From NCBI GenBank assembly GCA_039028615.1, contig JBCCHT010000027.1:139873-203872 (forward strand): a stretch of DNA of 64,000 nucleotides, read 5' to 3'. Made by a program: the position numbers and the translations under genes. The notes beneath the pieces were generated by a model. It saw nothing but the letters and a program-made list of their open reading frames with translations, was not told the DNA's origin and did no database searches. The first letter of the stretch is position 1. Each line of letters opens with the position of its first letter. This DNA is from Myxococcota bacterium (lineage in GTDB: Bacteria; Myxococcota_A; Polyangia; Nannocystales; Nannocystaceae). Positions 14,902 to 32,732 of the stretch are shown here, in pieces.

Positions 14902-15708
14902 TCAGCCCACGGGGGGAAAGCACGGGAACTTGATCACCCCGTCGACCTCGCCCCAGTTGAGGCTGACGGGCAACGACCGCATTCCGAGCGGGGCCAGGAT
15001 GCGATTGACGCTGTCGATGTCGGCGGGGGTGAGATAGCCGCCGCCCGGCGTCGCGTATTCGGAGCTCACCACCAAGCCTCCACCCGCGTCGGTGAACTCG
15101 AGCACGGTCTGCAGCTCGGCGTTGCTCGGCTGCTCGCCTCCGTCGAGGTAGGCCGACTCCTCGAAGTAGATGACCACGTCGTAGTCGTCGGCGAGGAGCG
15201 CGGGGGCGCCGACGTAGCGGGCCGGGAGGTGGATGGAGGCGGGGAACACGTGGTCGCCGAGCTCGATCTCGTCGGCCCAGCCGAAGGCGAGCAGCCGGGG
15301 CTCGGGCTCGTACCCACCCGCCAGCCACGGAAGCAGGGGGCACTCGGTTACTTCTTGCAGAGGCAGCGAGCTGTCGGCGGCGGCGATGAAGCGGCCCCGG
15401 CCGAACGTGCCCATCGCATACACGACGCTTCCCTCGAGCTCCGCGGTGGCGAACACCTGCTCGCCCGTGACTTCGAGCTGCCCCGACTGCATGGAGTCGA
15501 TTTGCACCGAGCAATCGACACACTCCCCCGGGCCCGCAGGGCCCACGTCGAGCACTGGCATGGAACCCGAACTCGAGGGGTCGTCCTCGCCGGTACTCTG
15601 CGACGGGGTCGCGGGGCCCGTGCTGGCGGCAGGGGGCAGCATGGGCTCGGAAGCGACCGTGCAGGCGACACTCGCGAGTAGCAGTGAACCGACGACGAGC
15701 CGCACCAT
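14902..15708 (-). CDS. Hypothetical lipoprotein
   Basis: LLLASVAC lipobox, S/T/P-rich linker, globular C-terminus. Confidence 0.65.
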   Translation of the reverse strand: MVRLVVGSLLLASVACTVASEPMLPPAASTGPATPSQSTGEDDPSSSGSMPVLDVGPAGPGECVDCSVQIDSMQSGQLEVTGEQVFATAELEGSVVYAMGTFGRGRFIAAADSSLPLQEVTECPLLPWLAGGYEPEPRLLAFGWADEIELGDHVFPASIHLPARYVGAPALLADDYDVVIYFEESAYLDGGEQPSNAELQTVLEFTDAGGGLVVSSEYATPGGGYLTPADIDSVNRILAPLGMRSLPVSLNWGEVDGVIKFPCFPPVG

Positions 15709-15880
15709 CCCATTTCCTTGGTGTCGGGACCGCTGCGGAAGGTTTCGCCGCCGATGCGACCAAGATGGTCACCCACTGCACCGAAAAATGGTTGATGATC
15801 GGAGTCGATCGAGTTGGCGGTCCGAACTATGCGACGATGGCCATCGTACTGAAGTCACCACTTCACCCTCGTACGTCGAC

Positions 15881-18800
15881 ATGAACGACGACCTCAGCAA
15901 CCAGAGCACGTTGGCGGGAGACCTCTCCACCGAAGTCCCCGCCACGGAGCATTCCAAGGGGCACCGCGTCGAGGTCGAGAGCCCGGCGCAACTCGTCGGT
16001 CGACGCTACGGTCGCTACGTGGTGCTCAGCGTGCTCGGTCACGGTGGGATGGGCATCGTCCTCGAGGGCTATGACGAAGAGCTGGACCGTCGGGTCGCGC
16101 TCAAGCTCCTGCACGACCATCTGGGCAGGCGGCACCGGGACCGCCTGCGACGGGAAGCCCAGGCGATGGCGAAGCTCTCGCACCCCAACGTCGTGCAGGT
16201 CTACGAGGTCGGGGACGCCGACGGCCAGACGTTCGTAGCAATGGAGCTGTTGCGGGGCCCGACGGTACGGTCGTGGATGGAACAGGAGCCACGGCCGGGC
16301 TGGCGAGCGAGTGTCGAAGTGTTCGTGCAGCTGGGAGCGGGCTTGGCCGCCGCGCACGAGCGAGACTTGGTGCATCGAGACTTCAAGCCGGACAACGCGA
16401 TGCTCGACGAGGACGGGCGGGCTCGGGTGCTCGACTTCGGGCTGGTGCGGCAGTGGGGGGACGAGGATTTCGAGTCTTCGACCGCCGCGGACTCCAACGG
16501 CTCGGACTCGATGTCCGCTCGAGAAGGCTCGCTGACCAAGACGGGAGCGCTGCTGGGGACGCCCGCGTACATGTCCCCCGAGCAAATGAGCGGAGCCGCG
16601 GTCGATGCTCGAAGCGACCAGTTCAACTTCTGCGTGGCGCTATACGAGGCGGTGTACGGCGAGCGGCCCTACGAGGGGGACTCGGTGGCGCAATTGATCA
16701 CGTCGATGGAGCGCGAGTCGTTGCGCGGGGCGCCCCCCAAGAGCAGCGTGCCCGCGCGGCTGCGCCGGGTGTTGAGCCGCGGGCTGGCCTACGATCCGGC
16801 GCAGCGCTGGCCATCGATGGAAGCCCTGCTCGCTGAGCTGCGGGTGCAGATTGCCCCACGAGGTCGGGCCCGTACCACGCTCGCGGTGGGAGTGCTGGCG
16901 CTCGGCCTGGGAGGAAGCTGGGCGTTTGCGGAATATGTGCAGGTCAAGGACCGGTGCACGGGCGCGGAGGCGAAGCTGGACGGGGTCTGGGACGATGAAC
17001 GCCGGGCCACGGTGAAGACCGCGATCCTGAATACCGCGCTGCCCTATGCACCGGACACCGTGGAGCGAGTGGAGGCGCGGCTGGATGCCGTTGCCGCGGC
17101 GTGGGTGGACAAGCACACCGAGGTCTGCGAGGCGACCGCAGTGCGGCAGGAGCAATCGGCTCAGACGCTGGAGCTGCGGATGGGGTGCCTGCAACAGCAG
17201 GCCTCTGAAGTCCGCGCCGCGGTCGACGTGCTCGCCAATGCAGACGCCACCGTGGTGCCCAACGCGATCACCCTGGCGTCCGGGTTGCCCGATGCCAGCC
17301 GATGCGACGACGTCGAGGCGCTGCGGGCTACGGTTGCGCCGCCCGAGCCCGCGAAGCAGGCCGAGGTGGAGGCGCTGCGCGGGCGCCTACAAGAGCTACG
17401 CGCGGAGCAGGACGCGGGACGCTACGCGGTCGCATTGAAGCAGATCGAGCCGGTGGTGGCCGCAGCCACAGACCTGGACTATGCGCCGCTGGTGGCCGAG
17501 GTCATGCAGCGACGGGGATCGCTGCAGCGAAGCAACGGTCACCACGACGCCGCGGAGAAGGACCTGCGCAAGGCCTACGCACTCGCGATCGAGCATCAAC
17601 ACGACGCCGCCGCCCTCGACGCGGTCGCGGAGCTGACCTTCGTCGTCGGCAGTACGATGGCCCGGTTCTCCGAGGGCCGGGTTTGGGGCGAGACGGCGAT
17701 GGCCCACGCCCGACGGAGTCGGGACGACGAGGAGCTCGCATCCGCCTTCCACACGATGGGCGCCGTGCTCTACACCGAGGGCGACTATGAGGGCTCCATG
17801 CGCCACAACGAACGCGCAGTGGAACTCGTGGAGCGGGCACGGGGCCCCGAGCATTTCGAGGCCGCGCCCTTCGTCAGCAGCATCGGCAACGCGCTCACTG
17901 CGATCGGAAAGCACGAGGAAGCCACGCAGCAGTACGAGCGAGCGCTTCGCATTCTCGAGCAGGCACTGGGTCCAGATCATCCCACCGTCGCCGGAACTCT
18001 GAGCAACCTGGGGGTGGCGCTGCGCCGTCTCGGCGAACTCGACCGGGCCAAGGCGGTGACCGAACGCGCACTGAAAATCCGCGAGGATTCCCTCGGATCC
18101 GATCATGCTCTCACGGCCGGTACGTTGGCCAATTTGTGCGTGCTGCTCAATTTGCGGAATGACAACGAGCAAGCGCGGACCTGCCACGAGCGCGCGCTCC
18201 GGGCCACCGAGAACGCCCTGGGACCCACGCACCCCGACGTCGCCCATTCCGCGACCAACCTGGCCATCACGCTGCAGCGGCTCGGTAAGGCCGAGCAAGC
18301 CGAGCCGCTGTTCGAGCGAGCATTGCGGGTCAAGGAGGAGGCACTGGGTCGCGAGCATCCCGATGTCGCCCTCGCCCTGGGCAACCTGGGCATGGTGCAC
18401 TGGGGCCGCGGGGAGTATGCGAGTGCTCGGCCGCTATACGAACGAGCGCTGGCGATTCTCGAAGCAGAGCGGGGACCCGAACATCCGCAGGTTGCATCGA
18501 CCGTGTCCACGCTCGGGGAGGTCTACCAACGGCAAGGGGACGATGTGCGGGCACGGCAAATGCACGAGCGCGCGCTGGCGATCATGGAGAAGGCGCTCGG
18601 ACCGGACGATCCGAAGCTGGCCAAATACATGCACAGCCTCGGGATGGTGCTGCTCGATCTGGGCGAGCGGGACGAGGCCAGGGCGTATTGGGAACGGGCG
18701 GTCGGGCTATCGCCGGAGCCGGAGAAAGACCCCGTGGACCTGGCGTATCCGCTGGTGGAGCTGGCGAAGCTCGCGGTCGCCGACGGGCAGATGTCACAGG

Positions 18801-19048
18801 CGCGTGGGTACGCCGAGCGGGCAGTGGCGATTCGGGAGAAACACGAGGCGGACGCGATGCCGTTGGCGATCGCCCGGTTCACGCTGGCGCGAGCCCTGTG
18901 GGTAACCCCGGGGGAACGAGTGCGGGCGCGAGCGCTGGCGCGAGAGGCTCGGGAAGTGCTCGAGCCAAGCGAAGAGCATGACGAGCAGGTGCAGGAGATC
19001 GAGCGTTGGCTGCAGCGCCACGGCTCGCCGGCCAGAGCCCGAGGCTGA
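15881..19048 (+). CDS. Hanks-type Ser/Thr kinase with TM and TPR repeats
   Basis: GHGGMGIV, VALK, HRDFKPDN, DFG, GTPAYMSPE and many LGPxHPxVA TPR units. The upstream part of the 15233 ORF overlaps the opposite-strand lipoprotein gene, so the start is placed at 15881 (or 15788). Confidence 0.92.
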   Translation: MNDDLSNQSTLAGDLSTEVPATEHSKGHRVEVESPAQLVGRRYGRYVVLSVLGHGGMGIVLEGYDEELDRRVALKLLHDHLGRRHRDRLRREAQAMAKLSHPNVVQVYEVGDADGQTFVAMELLRGPTVRSWMEQEPRPGWRASVEVFVQLGAGLAAAHERDLVHRDFKPDNAMLDEDGRARVLDFGLVRQWGDEDFESSTAADSNGSDSMSAREGSLTKTGALLGTPAYMSPEQMSGAAVDARSDQFNFCVALYEAVYGERPYEGDSVAQLITSMERESLRGAPPKSSVPARLRRVLSRGLAYDPAQRWPSMEALLAELRVQIAPRGRARTTLAVGVLALGLGGSWAFAEYVQVKDRCTGAEAKLDGVWDDERRATVKTAILNTALPYAPDTVERVEARLDAVAAAWVDKHTEVCEATAVRQEQSAQTLELRMGCLQQQASEVRAAVDVLANADATVVPNAITLASGLPDASRCDDVEALRATVAPPEPAKQAEVEALRGRLQELRAEQDAGRYAVALKQIEPVVAAATDLDYAPLVAEVMQRRGSLQRSNGHHDAAEKDLRKAYALAIEHQHDAAALDAVAELTFVVGSTMARFSEGRVWGETAMAHARRSRDDEELASAFHTMGAVLYTEGDYEGSMRHNERAVELVERARGPEHFEAAPFVSSIGNALTAIGKHEEATQQYERALRILEQALGPDHPTVAGTLSNLGVALRRLGELDRAKAVTERALKIREDSLGSDHALTAGTLANLCVLLNLRNDNEQARTCHERALRATENALGPTHPDVAHSATNLAITLQRLGKAEQAEPLFERALRVKEEALGREHPDVALALGNLGMVHWGRGEYASARPLYERALAILEAERGPEHPQVASTVSTLGEVYQRQGDDVRARQMHERALAIMEKALGPDDPKLAKYMHSLGMVLLDLGERDEARAYWERAVGLSPEPEKDPVDLAYPLVELAKLAVADGQMSQARGYAERAVAIREKHEADAMPLAIARFTLARALWVTPGERVRARALAREAREVLEPSEEHDEQVQEIERWLQRHGSPARARG

Positions 19049-19178
19049 CACTCGAGGTCAACGGCACAGTCGCTCTCGAACGCTGCGGGGGCACGGCGGT
19101 GAACTTGGTCCGCCACACGAGCGCCTCGAAGCACGACCCAGTGCGACCGGAGCTCGAATTTATTTGTCACCGACTTGC

Positions 19179-19207
19179 TTGACGAGGCCCCGCTCGTGCC
19201 CTAAAGA
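19179..19207 (+). promoter_or_regulatory. Candidate sigma70 promoter of leader/tRNA-Asp/tRNA-His unit
   Basis: TTGACG-N17-TAAAGA preceded by an AT-rich tract; the same -35 box occurs upstream of the tRNA array. Confidence 0.45.
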
Positions 19208-19242
19208 CAAAGAACCGCGTCACTTCGACGCGTGCATTCGTC

Positions 19243-19320
19243 ATGAACCGCTCCGCGCAGACTCATCGCCACCATCATGTGGTGATCGTGCATTCGATGC
19301 ACGATATCTGCCCGTGTTGA
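19243..19320 (+). CDS. Putative His-rich leader peptide MNRSAQTHRHHHVVIVHSMHDICPC (25 aa)
   Basis: Translated by hand; 6 His (4 CAT); overlaps hairpins; homologous in layout to the leader at 32597-32692. Confidence 0.6.
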   Translation: MNRSAQTHRHHHVVIVHSMHDICPC

Positions 19321-19400
19321 GCGGTTCCCGGCGTTTGTACCCAACTTGATGGACTTCGCCGGGCCTCTCGGCACGGGCGACCCCTCACCCATTCGTTGGC
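19285..19400 (+). promoter_or_regulatory. Structured leader/attenuator-like RNA element
   Basis: 9-bp triloop hairpin 19285-19305; long hairpin 19310-19378 (GCCCGTGTTGAG/CTCGGCACGGGC and CCCGGCG/CGCCGGG); CATTCGTTGGC motif 19390-19400. Confidence 0.6.
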
Positions 19401-19441
19401 CATGTCGACCGAGCCCCATTTGGCTCGAAGACGGGGCCCAC

Positions 19442-19513
19442 GGGGTCGTGGCGCAGTGGTAGCGCACCCGGTTGTCAGCCGGAAGGTCGCGGGTTCGAAT
19501 CCCGTCGGCCCCG
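19442..19513 (+). tRNA. tRNA-Asp(GTC)
   Basis: GGGGTCG/CGGCCCC acceptor, GCGC D-stem, loop TT-GTC-AG, T-loop TTCGAAT, G73; C27-A43 mismatch; followed by CCG rather than CCA. Confidence 0.9.
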
Positions 19514-19628
19514 CCGAGTCGTTGTCTGTCGACTCTCACCATCTTCTTACTCAACCACTCAACGACAAACACATCATGAACAACATCGAGCAATCCAACG
19601 GCGAGGACGACTCGACCCATCATCCGAT

Positions 19629-19705
19629 GGCGGGTGTAGCTCAGTAGGTAGAGTGCCGGAATGTGACTCCGGTGGGCGCCGGTTCGAGCCCGGCCACTCG
19701 CCCCA
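19629..19705 (+). tRNA. tRNA-His(GTG)
   Basis: Encoded G-1 opposite C73, GCGGGTG/CACTCGC acceptor, CCGGA-AT-GTG-AC-TCCGG anticodon arm, encoded CCA. Confidence 0.92.
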
Positions 19706-19746
19706 CAAATTCCTCCCCATGCGGTCTCATCGGCTGGCCACCTCGG

Positions 19747-20457
19747 CTAGATCCGAGGACCGCGAGACTTCGACCGGTCGTAGATGACCTCGGTCACCGC
19801 GTAGGTCGGCGTGTACTCCAGCACGTTCACCACCGGGTTCTTCGCGCCCGAGAGGCCGTACACGGTCCTCAATCCCCGCAGCAATACATCGAGGTACAGG
19901 CGTTCGTAGAGGTTCTCGGGGTAGGTGATCCGTCCGAGATTCCCGTTTTGGTTGCGCTCCAAGTGCTCGCGCTCGGTGCCGCGACGGAGCGCCCTCCAAC
20001 GCTTCGATGCACCCCTGGACAGCCTACCGGGCGAAAGCACGGCAAAGATGACCCGATACAGCGGTCCTGAGAGCGTCGCGCGTAGGTTGCGTTCGCCCCA
20101 GTCGAGATAGTCCTCATCGCTCCCGAAGAACGCCTCCCGCAGCGTGCCGTTCAGCGCGATCATATGAGCCTCCGGCACCCACCCCGAAGGCAGCGGCAAC
20201 GGATCGAACATGGCCTGCACCGGCTCCGGCAGCCGACTCAGGTCGAAGCCTTCGGGCGGGTTCTCGAGCACCCCGCGAACAAACGAGCCTTTGACCACCG
20301 CCTCGGGGTAGGAATCGAGGCCGTCGGGCAGCGTGCTCAGCCACTCGTCCGTCCGCGGAAAACCCTCGAACTGCCCCACCCGATCACGATACCGCGACGG
20401 CGACTTTTCCCTGTGGCCCGGGCCGGGCCATGGACCGCGGGTTTTCCCCGCGTTCAT
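19747..20457 (-). CDS. Hypothetical protein, possibly myxobacterial TIGR02265/DUF2378-like
   Basis: VVKGSFVRG...LPSGWVPE pattern recalled from this family; true start probably downstream of 20457. Confidence 0.5.
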   Translation of the reverse strand: MNAGKTRGPWPGPGHREKSPSRYRDRVGQFEGFPRTDEWLSTLPDGLDSYPEAVVKGSFVRGVLENPPEGFDLSRLPEPVQAMFDPLPLPSGWVPEAHMIALNGTLREAFFGSDEDYLDWGERNLRATLSGPLYRVIFAVLSPGRLSRGASKRWRALRRGTEREHLERNQNGNLGRITYPENLYERLYLDVLLRGLRTVYGLSGAKNPVVNVLEYTPTYAVTEVIYDRSKSRGPRI

Positions 20458-20557: not shown

Positions 20558-21508
20558 TCAGTCGGCGCGAAGCGTGCACGTGTCGAACCCCGCGCTCAGG
20601 ATCTCGGCGTCGAGATCGAGCCCCAGAATCACGAGCCGGCTCGTCCGATCGGCATCGGCCCAGGGCAGCCCCAGCGTGACCTCGATCGCCTCGCCGACCC
20701 CCTGGAGGATCACGCGTTCATCGACGCCATGCACGGCGAGAATCCCCTTGATTCTCGCGATCTTCGTCTGAATCGCGCCCAGCGTGGTCTCCACCCAGTG
20801 CCCGAAGCGGTCCTCGTCCAGCTCCCCGTCGTGGACCAGGGACACGGCCTTGATCCCACGGTGTTGGCCTCGGGCTTCTTTCGGCACGACTCGAAGCACC
20901 CCGGCCCGCGCCGCGAGCAGTTCCTCGAGTGAGCCTGCGTTCGGATCGTCCAAGCGTCCTCTCCGCGCTCGCGCGAACACGGCTCCGGGGGCATAGGGGG
21001 TCAGCTCCTCCGCCCGCGCGGTCACATCTGATTCCGTGCACTCGTCCACATGCGACATCACGACGACATCCGCGAACCCGAGCTGCTCGATCGTCAGGTC
21101 GTACCGTAGCGCGCGGTGGGCCCGCGCCACGTCGATGACTGTGACCACCCCGTCGAGTCGAAGCCGGTCCCGCGCCGTGCCCCAGGTGAGCGCTCGGATG
21201 ACACCAGCGGGCGAGGCCGCCCCCGAGGTCTCGACCACGATCCGTGACGGCCGGGGCGTGGCGTGAGCGAAGCCGGTCAACGCGGCATCGAGCGCGGCCT
21301 GGGTCGTGCAGCACACGCAGCCCCCGGTGATCTCGAGGATCTGCGATGCACGCGAGGCCAACAGGGCCCCATCGATCCCGACCTCGCCCTGCTCGTTGAC
21401 GATCACCGCCGTATCGGAAGGCAGAGCCAATAGCCAACGGTCGAGCAGCGTGGACTTGCCCGCTCCAAGAAAGCCCGTGACGACGGTGACGGGGATCGGC
21501 GAGTCCAC
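20558..21508 (-). CDS. CobW/COG0523 family G3E GTPase (putative metallochaperone)
   Basis: TGFLGAGKST, NExGEVGID, GGCVCC, ETSGAA, C-terminal RIKGIL...QGV domain. Confidence 0.92.
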   Translation of the reverse strand: MDSPIPVTVVTGFLGAGKSTLLDRWLLALPSDTAVIVNEQGEVGIDGALLASRASQILEITGGCVCCTTQAALDAALTGFAHATPRPSRIVVETSGAASPAGVIRALTWGTARDRLRLDGVVTVIDVARAHRALRYDLTIEQLGFADVVVMSHVDECTESDVTARAEELTPYAPGAVFARARRGRLDDPNAGSLEELLAARAGVLRVVPKEARGQHRGIKAVSLVHDGELDEDRFGHWVETTLGAIQTKIARIKGILAVHGVDERVILQGVGEAIEVTLGLPWADADRTSRLVILGLDLDAEILSAGFDTCTLRAD

Positions 21509-31274: not shown

Positions 31275-31429
31275 GATCGTTCGCAAAAAGCAGCCCGGGC
31301 CAAGGTCGGGGCCAACTATGGGTTCCAGAACAGGAATCGAACCTGCCCTCTTCGTTTCCAACGAAGTGCGCTCCAAATGCGCCATCTGTAATGGCTCCAG
31401 AGTCCCCGAGCTACTCTTTGCGATCGATC
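31275..31429 (-). ncRNA. Y-RNA-like ncRNA enclosing a full tRNA-like cloverleaf (anticodon GGA)
   Basis: Terminal stem GATCG-A-TCGCAAAGAGTAGCTCGGG / CCCGGGCTGCTTTTTGCGA-A-CGATC, internal loop with GACCTTG, inner stem TGGAGCCA/TGGCCCCG; cloverleaf at 31319-31391. Confidence 0.7.
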
Positions 31430-31439
31430 GTAGTTGTCG

Positions 31440-31469
31440 TGGAGACCCGAATTCAGCCTCGGGTCTCCA
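31440..31469. repeat. Perfect 11-bp inverted repeat (hairpin)
   Basis: TGGAGACCCGA-ATTCAGCC-TCGGGTCTCCA between tRNA-Ile and the Y-like RNA. Confidence 0.8.
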
Positions 31470-31487
31470 GCAATTTTCATCGTTCTA

Positions 31488-31564
31488 TGGTGGGCGCGGC
31501 AGGATTTGCACCTGCGACCTCTCGGTTATCAGCCGAGTGCTCCAACTCCCTGAGCTACGCGCCC
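31488..31564 (-). tRNA. tRNA-Ile(GAT)
   Basis: GGGCGCG/CGCGCCC-A-CCA; CTCGG-CT-GAT-AA-CCGAG; non-canonical T-loop TGCAAAT. Confidence 0.9.
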
Positions 31565-31633
31565 AGGGTAATCATCGCGGGCTCGTCGAGCGAGCCCATA
31601 CCGTACATGTCCATGATGTCCTCAATCTGTCTT

Positions 31634-31708
31634 TGGTACCGGGTGAGGGAGTCGAACCCCCAACCATCAGTGTGTAAAACTGCTGCTCTACCGTTGAGCC
31701 AACCCGGC
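31634..31708 (-). tRNA. tRNA-Val(TAC)
   Basis: GCCGGGT/ACCCGGT-A-CCA; loop TT-TAC-AC; T-loop TTCGACT; G27-A43 mismatch. Confidence 0.88.
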
Positions 31709-31760
31709 GTGGGTCCAGCGGGTCGCAATCCGGCGACCCTGCGTGGGACTCACGACGGTA

Positions 31761-31835
31761 TGGAGGGCGGTGCGGGATTCGAACCCGCGATCTCCTGGGT
31801 TGCAGCCAGGCGCCTTGCCACTCGACCAACCGCCC
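31761..31835 (-). tRNA. tRNA-Cys(GCA)
   Basis: GGGCGGT/ACCGCCC-T-CCA (U73); CCTGG-CT-GCA-AC-CCAGG; TTCGAAT. Confidence 0.92.
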
Positions 31836-31838
31836 TTG

Positions 31839-31909
31839 CGGCAGGTCGCCGGGGGATCGAACCCCGTCTCGTGGAGTTGGAGTCCACGGTCTCCTCCAGG
31901 AAGCGACCC
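31839..31909 (-). tRNA. tRNA-Trp(CCA) with shortened D-arm
   Basis: GGGTCGC/GCGACCT-G-CCG; CGTGGA-CT-CCA-AC-TCCACG; intact T-arm; only about 15 nt between acceptor and anticodon stems. Confidence 0.8.
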
Positions 31910-31987
31910 ATACGAACCGAAGTACGTACAACATCGCCAGGAGCGACCGAGGATGTGAAGTGGTTGGATCATCGTCCTCGTCCTTTT

Positions 31988-32063
31988 CGGTGGACCGGGT
32001 GGGAGTCGAACCCACGACCTTCTGCGTGCAAGGCAGTTGCTCTCCCAGCTGAGCTACCGGCCC
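31988..32063 (-). tRNA. tRNA-Ala(TGC)
   Basis: GGGCCGG/CCGGTCC with G3:U70 and A73; loop CT-TGC-AC; ends CCG. Confidence 0.92.
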
Positions 32064-32190
32064 ATGGGGGTCGCATGCCCTCCTGACCGGAGGGCCTACC
32101 TCGCGGCAGCGTCCTTTCGTGAAATGTTCATGATGTCACCCGTAAAAATTGGACAGTGGGTCAAGTTTGAAGAGATGAATTGGATCCCCT

Positions 32191-32265
32191 TGTCGGGGAT
32201 CGTTGGTTTCGAGCCAACGAATGGAGGCGTTTTCAGTGCCCTCTGTAGTCTCTTCGTAGTTCCCG
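32191..32265 (-). pseudogene. Degenerate tRNA-Phe(GAA)
   Basis: Loop CT-GAA-AA; T-arm GTTGG-CTCGAAA-CCAAC; acceptor with two mismatches; no proper D-stem; ends G-ACA. Confidence 0.6.
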
Positions 32266-32270
32266 TCGTC

Positions 32271-32403
32271 CGGTGGCGAGGGCTGGAGTCGAACCAGCAA
32301 ACTTCCGTTTTCGAGACAGACGCCTTTACCTGAAACCCCTCAGTAGCCCCCGGATCGCATCCGGGCCAGGTGTCGAGGGGTTGAACCATTTGGCTACCTC
32401 GCC
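32271..32403 (-). tRNA. Atypical 133-nt tRNA-like RNA, anticodon CGA (Ser), with ~50-nt hairpin insert in the D-loop
   Basis: GGCGAGG/CCTCGCC-A-CCG; D-stem GCC/GGC; TCTGT-CT-CGA-AA-ACGGA; 5-nt variable loop; GCTGG-TTCGACT-CCAGC; insert at 32334-32382. Confidence 0.8.
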
Positions 32404-32450: not shown

Positions 32451-32632
32451 GCCAACGATGGCCACACGGGCGTACGAAGCCCTCTCGGCGTAGGGCCGAG
32501 TCAGCGTGGCTCCGCGTGGAGCCAAAGCGTCGCGGGGGCTATGCCCTCGAGCGTCCCGATGCTCGTCGTATGAATGGATTCACACCGGGAGAACGCTCAA
32601 CACGCGACAATCTCGCCCGCAAGGCGGACGAG
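32451..32632 (-). promoter_or_regulatory. Structured leader/attenuator-like RNA element of the tRNA array
   Basis: 9-bp triloop hairpin 32612-32632; long hairpin 32529-32608 over the leader stop codon; CATCGTTGGC motif 32451-32460. Confidence 0.6.
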
Positions 32633-32692
32633 CGACCACAAGGCGGCGGCCTGGGCCGACGCTGGGGTCGAGATGTTCGTGAAACGTTCCAT
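32597..32692 (-). CDS. Putative leader peptide MERFTNISTPASAQAAALWSLVRLAGEIVAC (31 aa)
   Basis: Same end (I-x-x-C, TGT TGA GCG) and similar start context as the 19243 leader. Confidence 0.6.
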   Translation of the reverse strand: MERFTNISTPASAQAAALWSLVRLAGEIVAC

Positions 32693-32732
32693 GGCGTGAA
32701 CTCGTCGATCGCCCTTTGCAGGGCGTTTGAGA

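Follow-up and report, generated by a model that had tools for sequence, protein, structure and literature searches.

A putative codon-matched leader with a two-state fold ahead of spare tRNA genes in Nannocystaceae

The classical leader-peptide attenuators, namely hisL, trpL, pheL, thrL and the ilv leaders, combine a short reading frame rich in cognate codons with mutually exclusive helices that overlap it, and they act on enzyme genes through a terminator made of a hairpin and a run of U. Transfer RNA (tRNA) genes are usually described as promoter-controlled, following growth rate and the stringent response. The present analysis concerns a 64,000-nucleotide stretch of a Nannocystaceae genome (Myxococcota; contig JBCCHT010000027.1), called here the window, in which a short frame at 19243..19320 lies ahead of a tRNA-Asp and a tRNA-His gene; features are on the + strand unless stated otherwise. 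Comparison with related leaders supports that the sensing principle of a known kind of control, leader-peptide attenuation, is applied here to a new gene class, the tRNA genes. The pheL attenuator is the subject of a dedicated paper (PMC3082878). Like such attenuators, the leaders described below hold a short frame enriched in cognate codons and overlapped by exclusive helices, and they are multivalent as the thr and ilv leaders are, but their targets are tRNA genes and not enzymes, and no hairpin-plus-U terminator is present.

Leader-peptide control of a gene of the translation apparatus is known from pheM-pheST of Escherichia coli. There as here, ribosome sensing of cognate codons would be applied to the decoding machinery, but pheM-pheST acts on a synthetase mRNA through a canonical terminator, whereas the putative output in the window is tRNA itself and no terminator is seen. 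T-boxes are untranslated, bind uncharged tRNA directly and control synthetase or amino-acid genes. The leader in the window resembles them as a leader RNA that would read the state of a specific tRNA by means of two folds; unlike them, it has no Rfam match and its cognate signal is specific to one reading frame. In erm/cat translational attenuation, an antibiotic-stalled ribosome frees the ribosome-binding site of a downstream protein gene. A ribosome stalled in a short frame would likewise re-pair a downstream hairpin here, with no terminator involved, but nothing downstream is translated.

Spare tRNA sets under their own control have been described in Anabaena sp. PCC 7120, where the trn L-array is a tRNA operon induced when translation is impaired and controlled by direct repeats in its promoter and by the repressor TrcR (PMC8421152, PMC10272220). 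Arrays of this type reach up to 43 genes according to the introduction of PMC8421152, and neither 'leader' nor 'attenuat' appears in the available text of either paper. The Nannocystaceae genes resemble the Anabaena array in being a duplicate tRNA set apart from the housekeeping set. They differ from it in that their blocks hold 1-14 tRNAs each, below the size of a long array, and each block has a codon-matched frame. A full-text search, with subscription journals and supplements outside its reach, returned no paper on a leader peptide or attenuator for tRNA genes.

The frame in the window comprises 25 codons and a TGA stop and encodes six His, one Asp and two Cys. Four of the His codons are CAT and two are CAC, and the sole Asp codon, a GAT, is codon 21. 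Since the long open reading frames (ORFs) of the same genome prefer CAC (CAC 0.66, CAT 0.34; for Asp, GAC 0.66, GAT 0.34), the bias of the leader toward CAT is real. Codon counts thus confirm an earlier note on this DNA, which had described a 25-residue ORF with six His, four of them encoded by CAT, and one GAT Asp in a genome favouring C-ending codons. The His codons are grouped in a run at codons 8-12 (CAT CGC CAC CAT CAT, 19264..19278), and a His20-Asp21 pair (CAC GAT, 19300..19305) stands 6 and 5 codons ahead of the stop. The first five residues and the last one were left out of the tests of codon matching because they are fixed by RNA pairing, as shown below. Within the remaining core, 7/19 residues are His or Asp, where 0.09 is expected from the pooled leaders (p = 6.5e-4).

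Behind the frame, at a distance of 122 bases, comes a spare copy of tRNA-Asp(GTC) (19442..19515; Rfam 65.8 bits, also called by ARAGORN), followed by a spare copy of tRNA-His(GTG) (19630..19705; Rfam 64.3 bits) with a G encoded at its position -1 (19629). Scanning 18900-19900 against Rfam at E <= 10 returned these two tRNAs and one chance match, with no leader family and no T-box.

Among 40 relatives searched by BLAST, the window leader was found in one genome, G002, which belongs to the same genus. The earlier note had looked to orthologous leaders for His codons, and the G002 leader, the only Asp/His ortholog found, keeps the frame with a 9-base in-frame insertion and holds 6 His and 3 Asp codons, so this check speaks for the reading of the note. 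The operon of G002 has an additional tRNA-Asp(GTC) (L003:1332-1407) between the leader and the Asp-His pair.

More distant relatives were sought with covariance models in 73 family genomes, defined as the records titled Nannocystaceae. The first model, R1, was built from the window and G002 leaders and found ten places, nine of them ahead of tRNA blocks of very different identity. It missed most relatives, including two leaders of the window genome, and was dropped as too weak in favour of R2, built from 16 leaders. Since MAFFT and RNAalifold alone recovered only 10 pairs of the long helix P4 described below, the pairs of P4 were set by hand for R2. This model matched 41 places at E <= 5.4e-5 in 29/73 family genomes, and same-strand tRNA genes were found downstream at 41/41 of them, all of which were examined. 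Two weaker family matches, L138 and L139, are real variants. Others (L137, L141-L144; E > 1e-4) are coding DNA with no tRNA behind and were rejected as false, as were weak matches in the window genome (E 0.001-0.3), which fall on the starts of ordinary protein genes. Outside the family, 133 genomes of other families of the class gave one weak match (E = 6.9e-5).

Scanning one genome per species in 185,579 species with a degenerate start-gap-stop pattern gave 65 matches, 16 of them in frame and 12 of these open. Same-strand tRNA genes follow 12/12 of the open in-frame matches and 0/53 of the other matches. The records behind these 12 are titled Nannocystaceae, Nannocystales, Polyangia, Myxococcales or Myxococcota, apart from one cultured strain, Paraliomyxa miuraensis SMH-27-4, whose leader (L109) precedes a Met-Phe-Lys-Lys-Asn block, and two metagenome-assembled genomes titled Gemmatimonadota and 'uncultured proteobacterium'.

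The window genome itself contains 86 tRNAs in 60 clusters according to ARAGORN, and R2 finds four strong copies of the leader in it. The blocks behind these four are Thr-Phe-Asn-Lys-Lys, Asp-His, Ser-Ala-Trp-Cys-Val-Ile-Ser and Met-Phe. The third has its leader in the window too, on the - strand (32531..32712; R2 117.7 bits, E = 2.3e-28), with a frame at 32597-32692 ahead of the block 31319-32344; cognate residues make up 15/25 of its core. Elsewhere in the genome (C3:258032-258145, +), a 37-codon frame lacking the start and stop motifs of the family precedes a block (258280-258723) of four tRNA-Ser isoacceptors and a tRNA-Tyr. It has 9 Ser codons covering all four isoacceptor classes, with the rare AGT, TCT and TCA among them, and 3 Tyr codons, and it ends in a Cys codon and TAG. 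This frame probably represents a further sequence type of the device.

The codons of the frames follow the tRNAs behind them. For this comparison, 45 non-identical leaders with their operons were collapsed into 28 groups by peptide similarity. The proportion of core residues whose tRNA occurs in the operon behind was 0.356, against 0.182 +/- 0.018 for permuted operons (0/100000 as high); in the 14 groups fetched after the idea was formed it was 0.323 against 0.165 +/- 0.028 (0/100000 as high), although these permutation figures overstate independence because the leader groups are related lineages. All 15 of 15 amino acids were commoner where their own tRNA follows. For instance, the core share with and without the cognate tRNA downstream was 0.129 and 0.017 for His, 0.104 and 0.011 for Asp, and 0.140 and 0.022 for Met. 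Blocks as different as Asp-His, Met-Phe, Ser-Tyr, Asp-Cys, Lys-Asn and runs of Met each display their own amino acids. Enrichment in cognate codons, a hallmark of leader-peptide attenuators, is therefore found both in the window and throughout the family.

The choice and the position of the cognate codons are also uneven. Those ending in A or T, the rare ones, number 90/259, where 41.8 are expected from genome usage, against 131/533 (116.7 expected) among non-cognate codons; GAT, for example, outnumbers GAC by 24 to 7. Cognate residues are concentrated at codons 4 and 5 before the stop, in 17/28 and 16/28 groups respectively, compared with about a third elsewhere.

The frames are conserved as frames. 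In the R2 alignment of 46 rows, both start and stop columns are filled in 43, and 43/43 of these rows are in frame with no internal stop, over lengths of 19-67 codons, so that the short frame with its own start and stop that is typical of attenuators is present. Cognate triplets make up 410/1221 codons in frame 0 (0.336), against 78/1176 (0.066) and 101/1176 (0.086) in the two shifted frames.

The RNA folds strongly around this frame. Positions 19214-19441 give a folding z of -5.60, and 0/200 shuffles folded as well. The family has two covarying helices. The first, P0, pairs codons 2-5 (region 1, 19246..19257) with bases running from just 5' of the stop to eight bases past it. The second, P4, is a long hairpin (19309..19379) with the last two codons and the TGA stop in its 5' arm. 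They share a strand, region 2 (19315..19326, alignment columns 285-296, with the stop codon at 19318-19320), and are mutually exclusive because both use it. This shared strand accounts for the conservation of the first five codons and of the final Cys (or Arg) codon with TGA around a variable middle.

Covariation in the 46 sequences supports both helices. For P0, 89.9% of cells pair and 6/11 pairs change on both sides, with 20 two-sided cells against 7.0 +/- 2.2 in shuffles (0/500 as high) and 20-54% pairing in slid controls. For P4, 91.6% of cells pair and 8/13 pairs change on both sides, with 42 two-sided cells against 15.1 +/- 2.8 (0/500 as high) and 36-48% pairing in slid controls. The two states are nearly equal in energy in the window (-74.3 kcal/mol for P0, -74.5 kcal/mol for P4), and their difference over 30 loci averages +1.4 +/- 6.4 kcal/mol. 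When a ribosome footprint was masked at codon -5 or -4 of the window leader, the predicted fold had 8/8 pairs of P0 and 0/4 pairs at the base of P4; a mask at the stop codon blocked both helices. The exclusive helices of a leader-peptide attenuator are thus present, and the masking model predicts that the choice between them depends on the ribosome. Attenuators of the classical kind have four pairing regions, whereas three are found here, the first being the start of the frame itself.

Smaller hairpins lie within the frame. The earlier note had placed the His run in a hairpin that overlaps the next one, and the minimum-energy fold contains both, P2 with the His run (19265..19286) and P3 in the last third of the frame (19286..19304), with one base in common. 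G002 has at the place of P2 a hairpin of different sequence with a longer stem. Across the family there are one or two such hairpins, P3 being the last, and a hairpin at this place beats shuffles (z < -2) in 14/26 leader groups, with a mean z of -2.2. At the predicted 5' end of the transcript, the same fold has a small hairpin, P1 (19216..19232), kept in G002 with a change from U-A to U-G.

Upstream of the leader, promoter-like elements are shared by the family. A -35-like hexamer starting with TTGAC (19179..19184 in the window) is found at the same place in 45/45 leaders. It is followed after a fixed spacer of 17 bases by a -10-like hexamer (19202..19207) that has T at position 1 in 39/45 and A at position 2 in 41/45. 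An A/T-rich, UP-like stretch can be read just 5' of the -35 in the window (19157..19169), and most of the 45 leaders have such a stretch. Transcription would start about 7 bases 3' of the -10. A generic consensus scan called no promoter at the -35/-10 of the window because the -10 lacks its final T.

The tRNAs behind the leaders appear to be a second set. Each anticodon of the four gated blocks and of the Ser/Tyr variant has an ungated counterpart in the same genome, and the gated genes form a diverged duplicate set, since their identity to the ungated copies lies at only about 54-77% (54/75 for Asp, 56/76 for His) and their anticodons are all duplicated. Such duplicates would serve as an on-demand reserve. 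The earlier note had drawn attention to His and Asp tRNAs as members of the queuosine family with GUN anticodons, targets of colicin E5-type nucleases. This rationale finds no support in the family: GUN anticodons are not the common thread because Thr, Val, Ile, Met, Lys and other tRNAs (Phe, Ser, Ala, Cys, Trp, Gly) are gated too, and most gated tRNAs lie outside the GUN group.

From these comparisons, the frame at 19243-19320 is very probably a translated, codon-matched regulatory leader of the tRNA block behind it. It is also likely, with somewhat over even confidence and with the direction of the response included, that this leader reports how fast His and Asp codons are decoded and that the two-state fold raises the output of spare tRNA-Asp and tRNA-His when decoding is slow. 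A ribosome arriving promptly at the stop would keep the shared strand covered while the 3' arm of P4 is being transcribed, and P4 would then form. If instead the ribosome were held 4-6 codons ahead of the stop, at the cognate codons (His20 and Asp21 in the window), the shared strand would be free to pair with the start region, so that P0 forms and P4 stays open. With no ribosome at all, P0 would form likewise, which makes the predicted untranslated state equal to the stalled one, unlike in trp, where the absence of translation leads to termination. P4 is taken as the 'off' state because it is the sole helix that closes right behind the polymerase; it would act as a non-canonical transcription stop or as a signal for decay or processing, and P0 would be the 'on' state. 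This polarity fits strong promoters placed before a reserve gene set. The leaders may thus be dead-man's switches, a proposal to which we give an even chance: only a ribosome on time would close P4 and shut the spare block, a stalled or absent one would let the tRNAs be made, and the outcome would be read out with neither Rho nor a canonical terminator.

Much of what the earlier note proposed is retained in this scheme. The feedback loop with tRNA as its output is supported by comparison, through the codon match and through the downstream tRNAs being the only controllable genes, while its direction, a stall giving more tRNA, is one that we infer. The analogy with hisL holds for the principle of sensing; it fails in that the leader has no hisL-type terminator, its His codons do not form an unbroken run, tRNAs and not hisG stand behind, and no leader family of Rfam matches.

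Several observations weigh against the proposed scheme. The masked-ribosome fold yields P0 (>= 6/8 pairs) in 10/30 loci only. In a search of sequencing runs, three runs recorded as RNA contained 0.04 of the sampled sequence words and no such run contained more; the sole complete match was a DNA run that may be the source sample. No Shine-Dalgarno-like 4-mer precedes the ATG in the window, and such a 4-mer occurs in just 20/45 leaders. Single tRNA-Thr(TGT) units match poorly, with 2-3 cognate residues in cores of 24-26, and several Asp-only leaders of 40-67 codons match between 1/35 and 5/61. There is no isoacceptor-specific choice of codons, 185/221 being readable against 180.3 expected. The A/T-rich codons before the stop lie in or just past P3, so RNA structure may contribute to the codon bias. 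Finally, both usual ways of reading out such a switch are missing. No U-tract follows P4 in the 31 leaders, among 45, in which the end of P4 and the first tRNA can be placed, so P4 was rejected as a canonical terminator. In the same way, Rho-dependent read-out was rejected and this other usual route removed, since the RNA-binding domain of Rho (PF07497) was detected in 0/73 family genomes and in 0/1 for the window genome itself, while 9/14 control genomes were positive.

The lack of an intrinsic terminator at P4 is not a general property of this genome. In the 70 bases past its 60 tRNA clusters, folding reaches z < -2 in 31, compared with 2/60 control stretches, and a T-rich tract lies past 29/60 clusters compared with 9/60 controls. 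Canonical terminators thus end tRNA clusters in the same genome and none follows P4, which argues that P4 is not one. A 20-kb stretch of the window had no excess of terminator-like sites (6 against 9.1 +/- 3.3). The leaders were also compared for complementarity to the 5' end of the tRNA that comes first, and such pairing was rejected, with a mean of 4.86 for own pairs and 4.88 for cross pairs (11881/20000 permutations as high).

The direction of the response has been weighed against its reverse, in which the stalling of a ribosome short of charged tRNA would silence the spare tRNA genes, as an amino-acid-specific, stringent-like control that halts the production of unchargeable tRNA. With an early stall, for instance at the His run of codons 8-12, neither arm of P4 is occupied, P4 alone closes right behind the polymerase, and cognate codons are spread over the whole frame rather than being confined to the region of the stop. 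Moreover, tRNA is removed early in amino-acid starvation in E. coli, as reported in PMC5314770. The reverse polarity is nonetheless unlikely. A ribosome stalled at the hot spot (codons -4 and -5) would sit over the base of P4, the loop would run away if the tRNA itself became limiting, and strong consensus promoters before duplicate tRNAs fit a reserve normally held off. To our knowledge, every leader-peptide attenuator described so far turns on genes that remedy the shortage.

Instead of deciding whether transcription proceeds, P0 and P4 might act after it, determining the processing or the lifetime of the precursor, for instance through a double-strand nuclease acting on a long helix. The missing U-tract after placeable P4 ends and the missing Rho favour such a post-transcriptional switch, as do the length of P4 and of the extended P0 of the window and the gap from P4 to the first tRNA, which runs from 22 to about 250 bases and argues against a fixed point of termination. 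On the other hand, RNase P and other nucleases free tRNAs from their precursors irrespective of the leader, and the leaders show no complementarity to the 5' end of the first tRNA; we regard this explanation as doubtful.

It is very unlikely that the element is a structured non-coding RNA, whose open frame would be a by-product of helices (CAC/CAT pairing with GTG, TTT with AAA) or whose triplets would bind anticodons in the manner of a T-box. P0 and P4 pairing does explain the conserved first five codons, the last codon and the stop, the His run sits in a hairpin opposite Val codons, and the start in the window has no Shine-Dalgarno-like motif. Against this stand a frame that remains open and in register in every aligned row, whatever its length, a cognate signal confined to that frame, and the lack of any Rfam or T-box match at E <= 10. 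The frame might instead encode a small peptide, rich in His and Cys, that acts by itself, for example in metal binding, next to the gene of a COG0523-like GTPase. Its composition, with six His and two Cys among 25 residues, and a CxCC-containing GTPase gene on the other strand (20558-21508) could suggest this, but it is extremely improbable, given that sibling peptides have no common core sequence, their composition follows the tRNAs behind and their conserved ends are explained by RNA pairing.

Other features of the locus and of the family deserve mention. The spacer between tRNA-Asp and tRNA-His (19516..19629) is about 75-80% identical to that of G002 in its 3' half. At 19576-19629 in this spacer, an ATG opens an 18-codon stretch that reaches the first base of tRNA-His. 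It spans 54 bases in the window genome and in G002 (L003:1630-1683), with two Asp and two His codons kept near its end and with third-position changes between the two genomes; from a comparison of two sequences, it may be a second small sensor or chance. Just past tRNA-His, a 6-bp hairpin without a U-tract was read by eye at 19741-19758, beside the end of a convergent ORF (19747-20457), and it may be the end signal of the tRNA-Asp/His operon. The neighbouring GTPase-like ORF with the CxCC motif (20558-21508, -) is presumably COG0523/CobW-like. On the other side, an ORF of 1271 codons (15233-19048, +) has what we take to be a Ser/Thr-kinase-like region at its start, followed by tetratricopeptide-like repeats.

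Among the sibling loci, nine leaders (L116, L123, L129, L132, L134, L135, L138, L004 and L101) have a 15-base hairpin motif, nearly the same in each, that lies between the predicted start of transcription and the start codon, with a Shine-Dalgarno-like GGAG in its 3' half; the Asp/His leader of the window does not have it. The two tRNA-Ser genes of the sibling block in the window (31319-31391 and 32272-32344, -; GGA and CGA anticodons) are called by ARAGORN at 73 bases each and do not have the long variable arm expected. The leaders before a lone tRNA-Thr(TGT), with few Thr codons, are L034 (G052), L035 (G051), L037 (G006) and L120 (G022). The three Thr codons of L034 are each ACA or ACG in a genome that prefers ACC, and the unit of L034 is a single tRNA-Thr because a convergent ORF comes next.

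If the proposed control is true, these would be the first known case of tRNA genes governed by the decoding of their own codons. It would also point to an undescribed way of stopping or discarding transcripts, and, for a lineage that lacks Rho, the absence of a terminator also leads one to ask how transcripts are ended. In addition, the parts are short and modular and exist in dozens of natural versions for at least 15 amino acids, features suited to reporters and to synthetic codon-specific sensors. How cells notice the shortage of one tRNA species would become testable with such a system, and a sensor in each block for the decoding of its own codons would add a new level to the homeostasis of the translation machinery.

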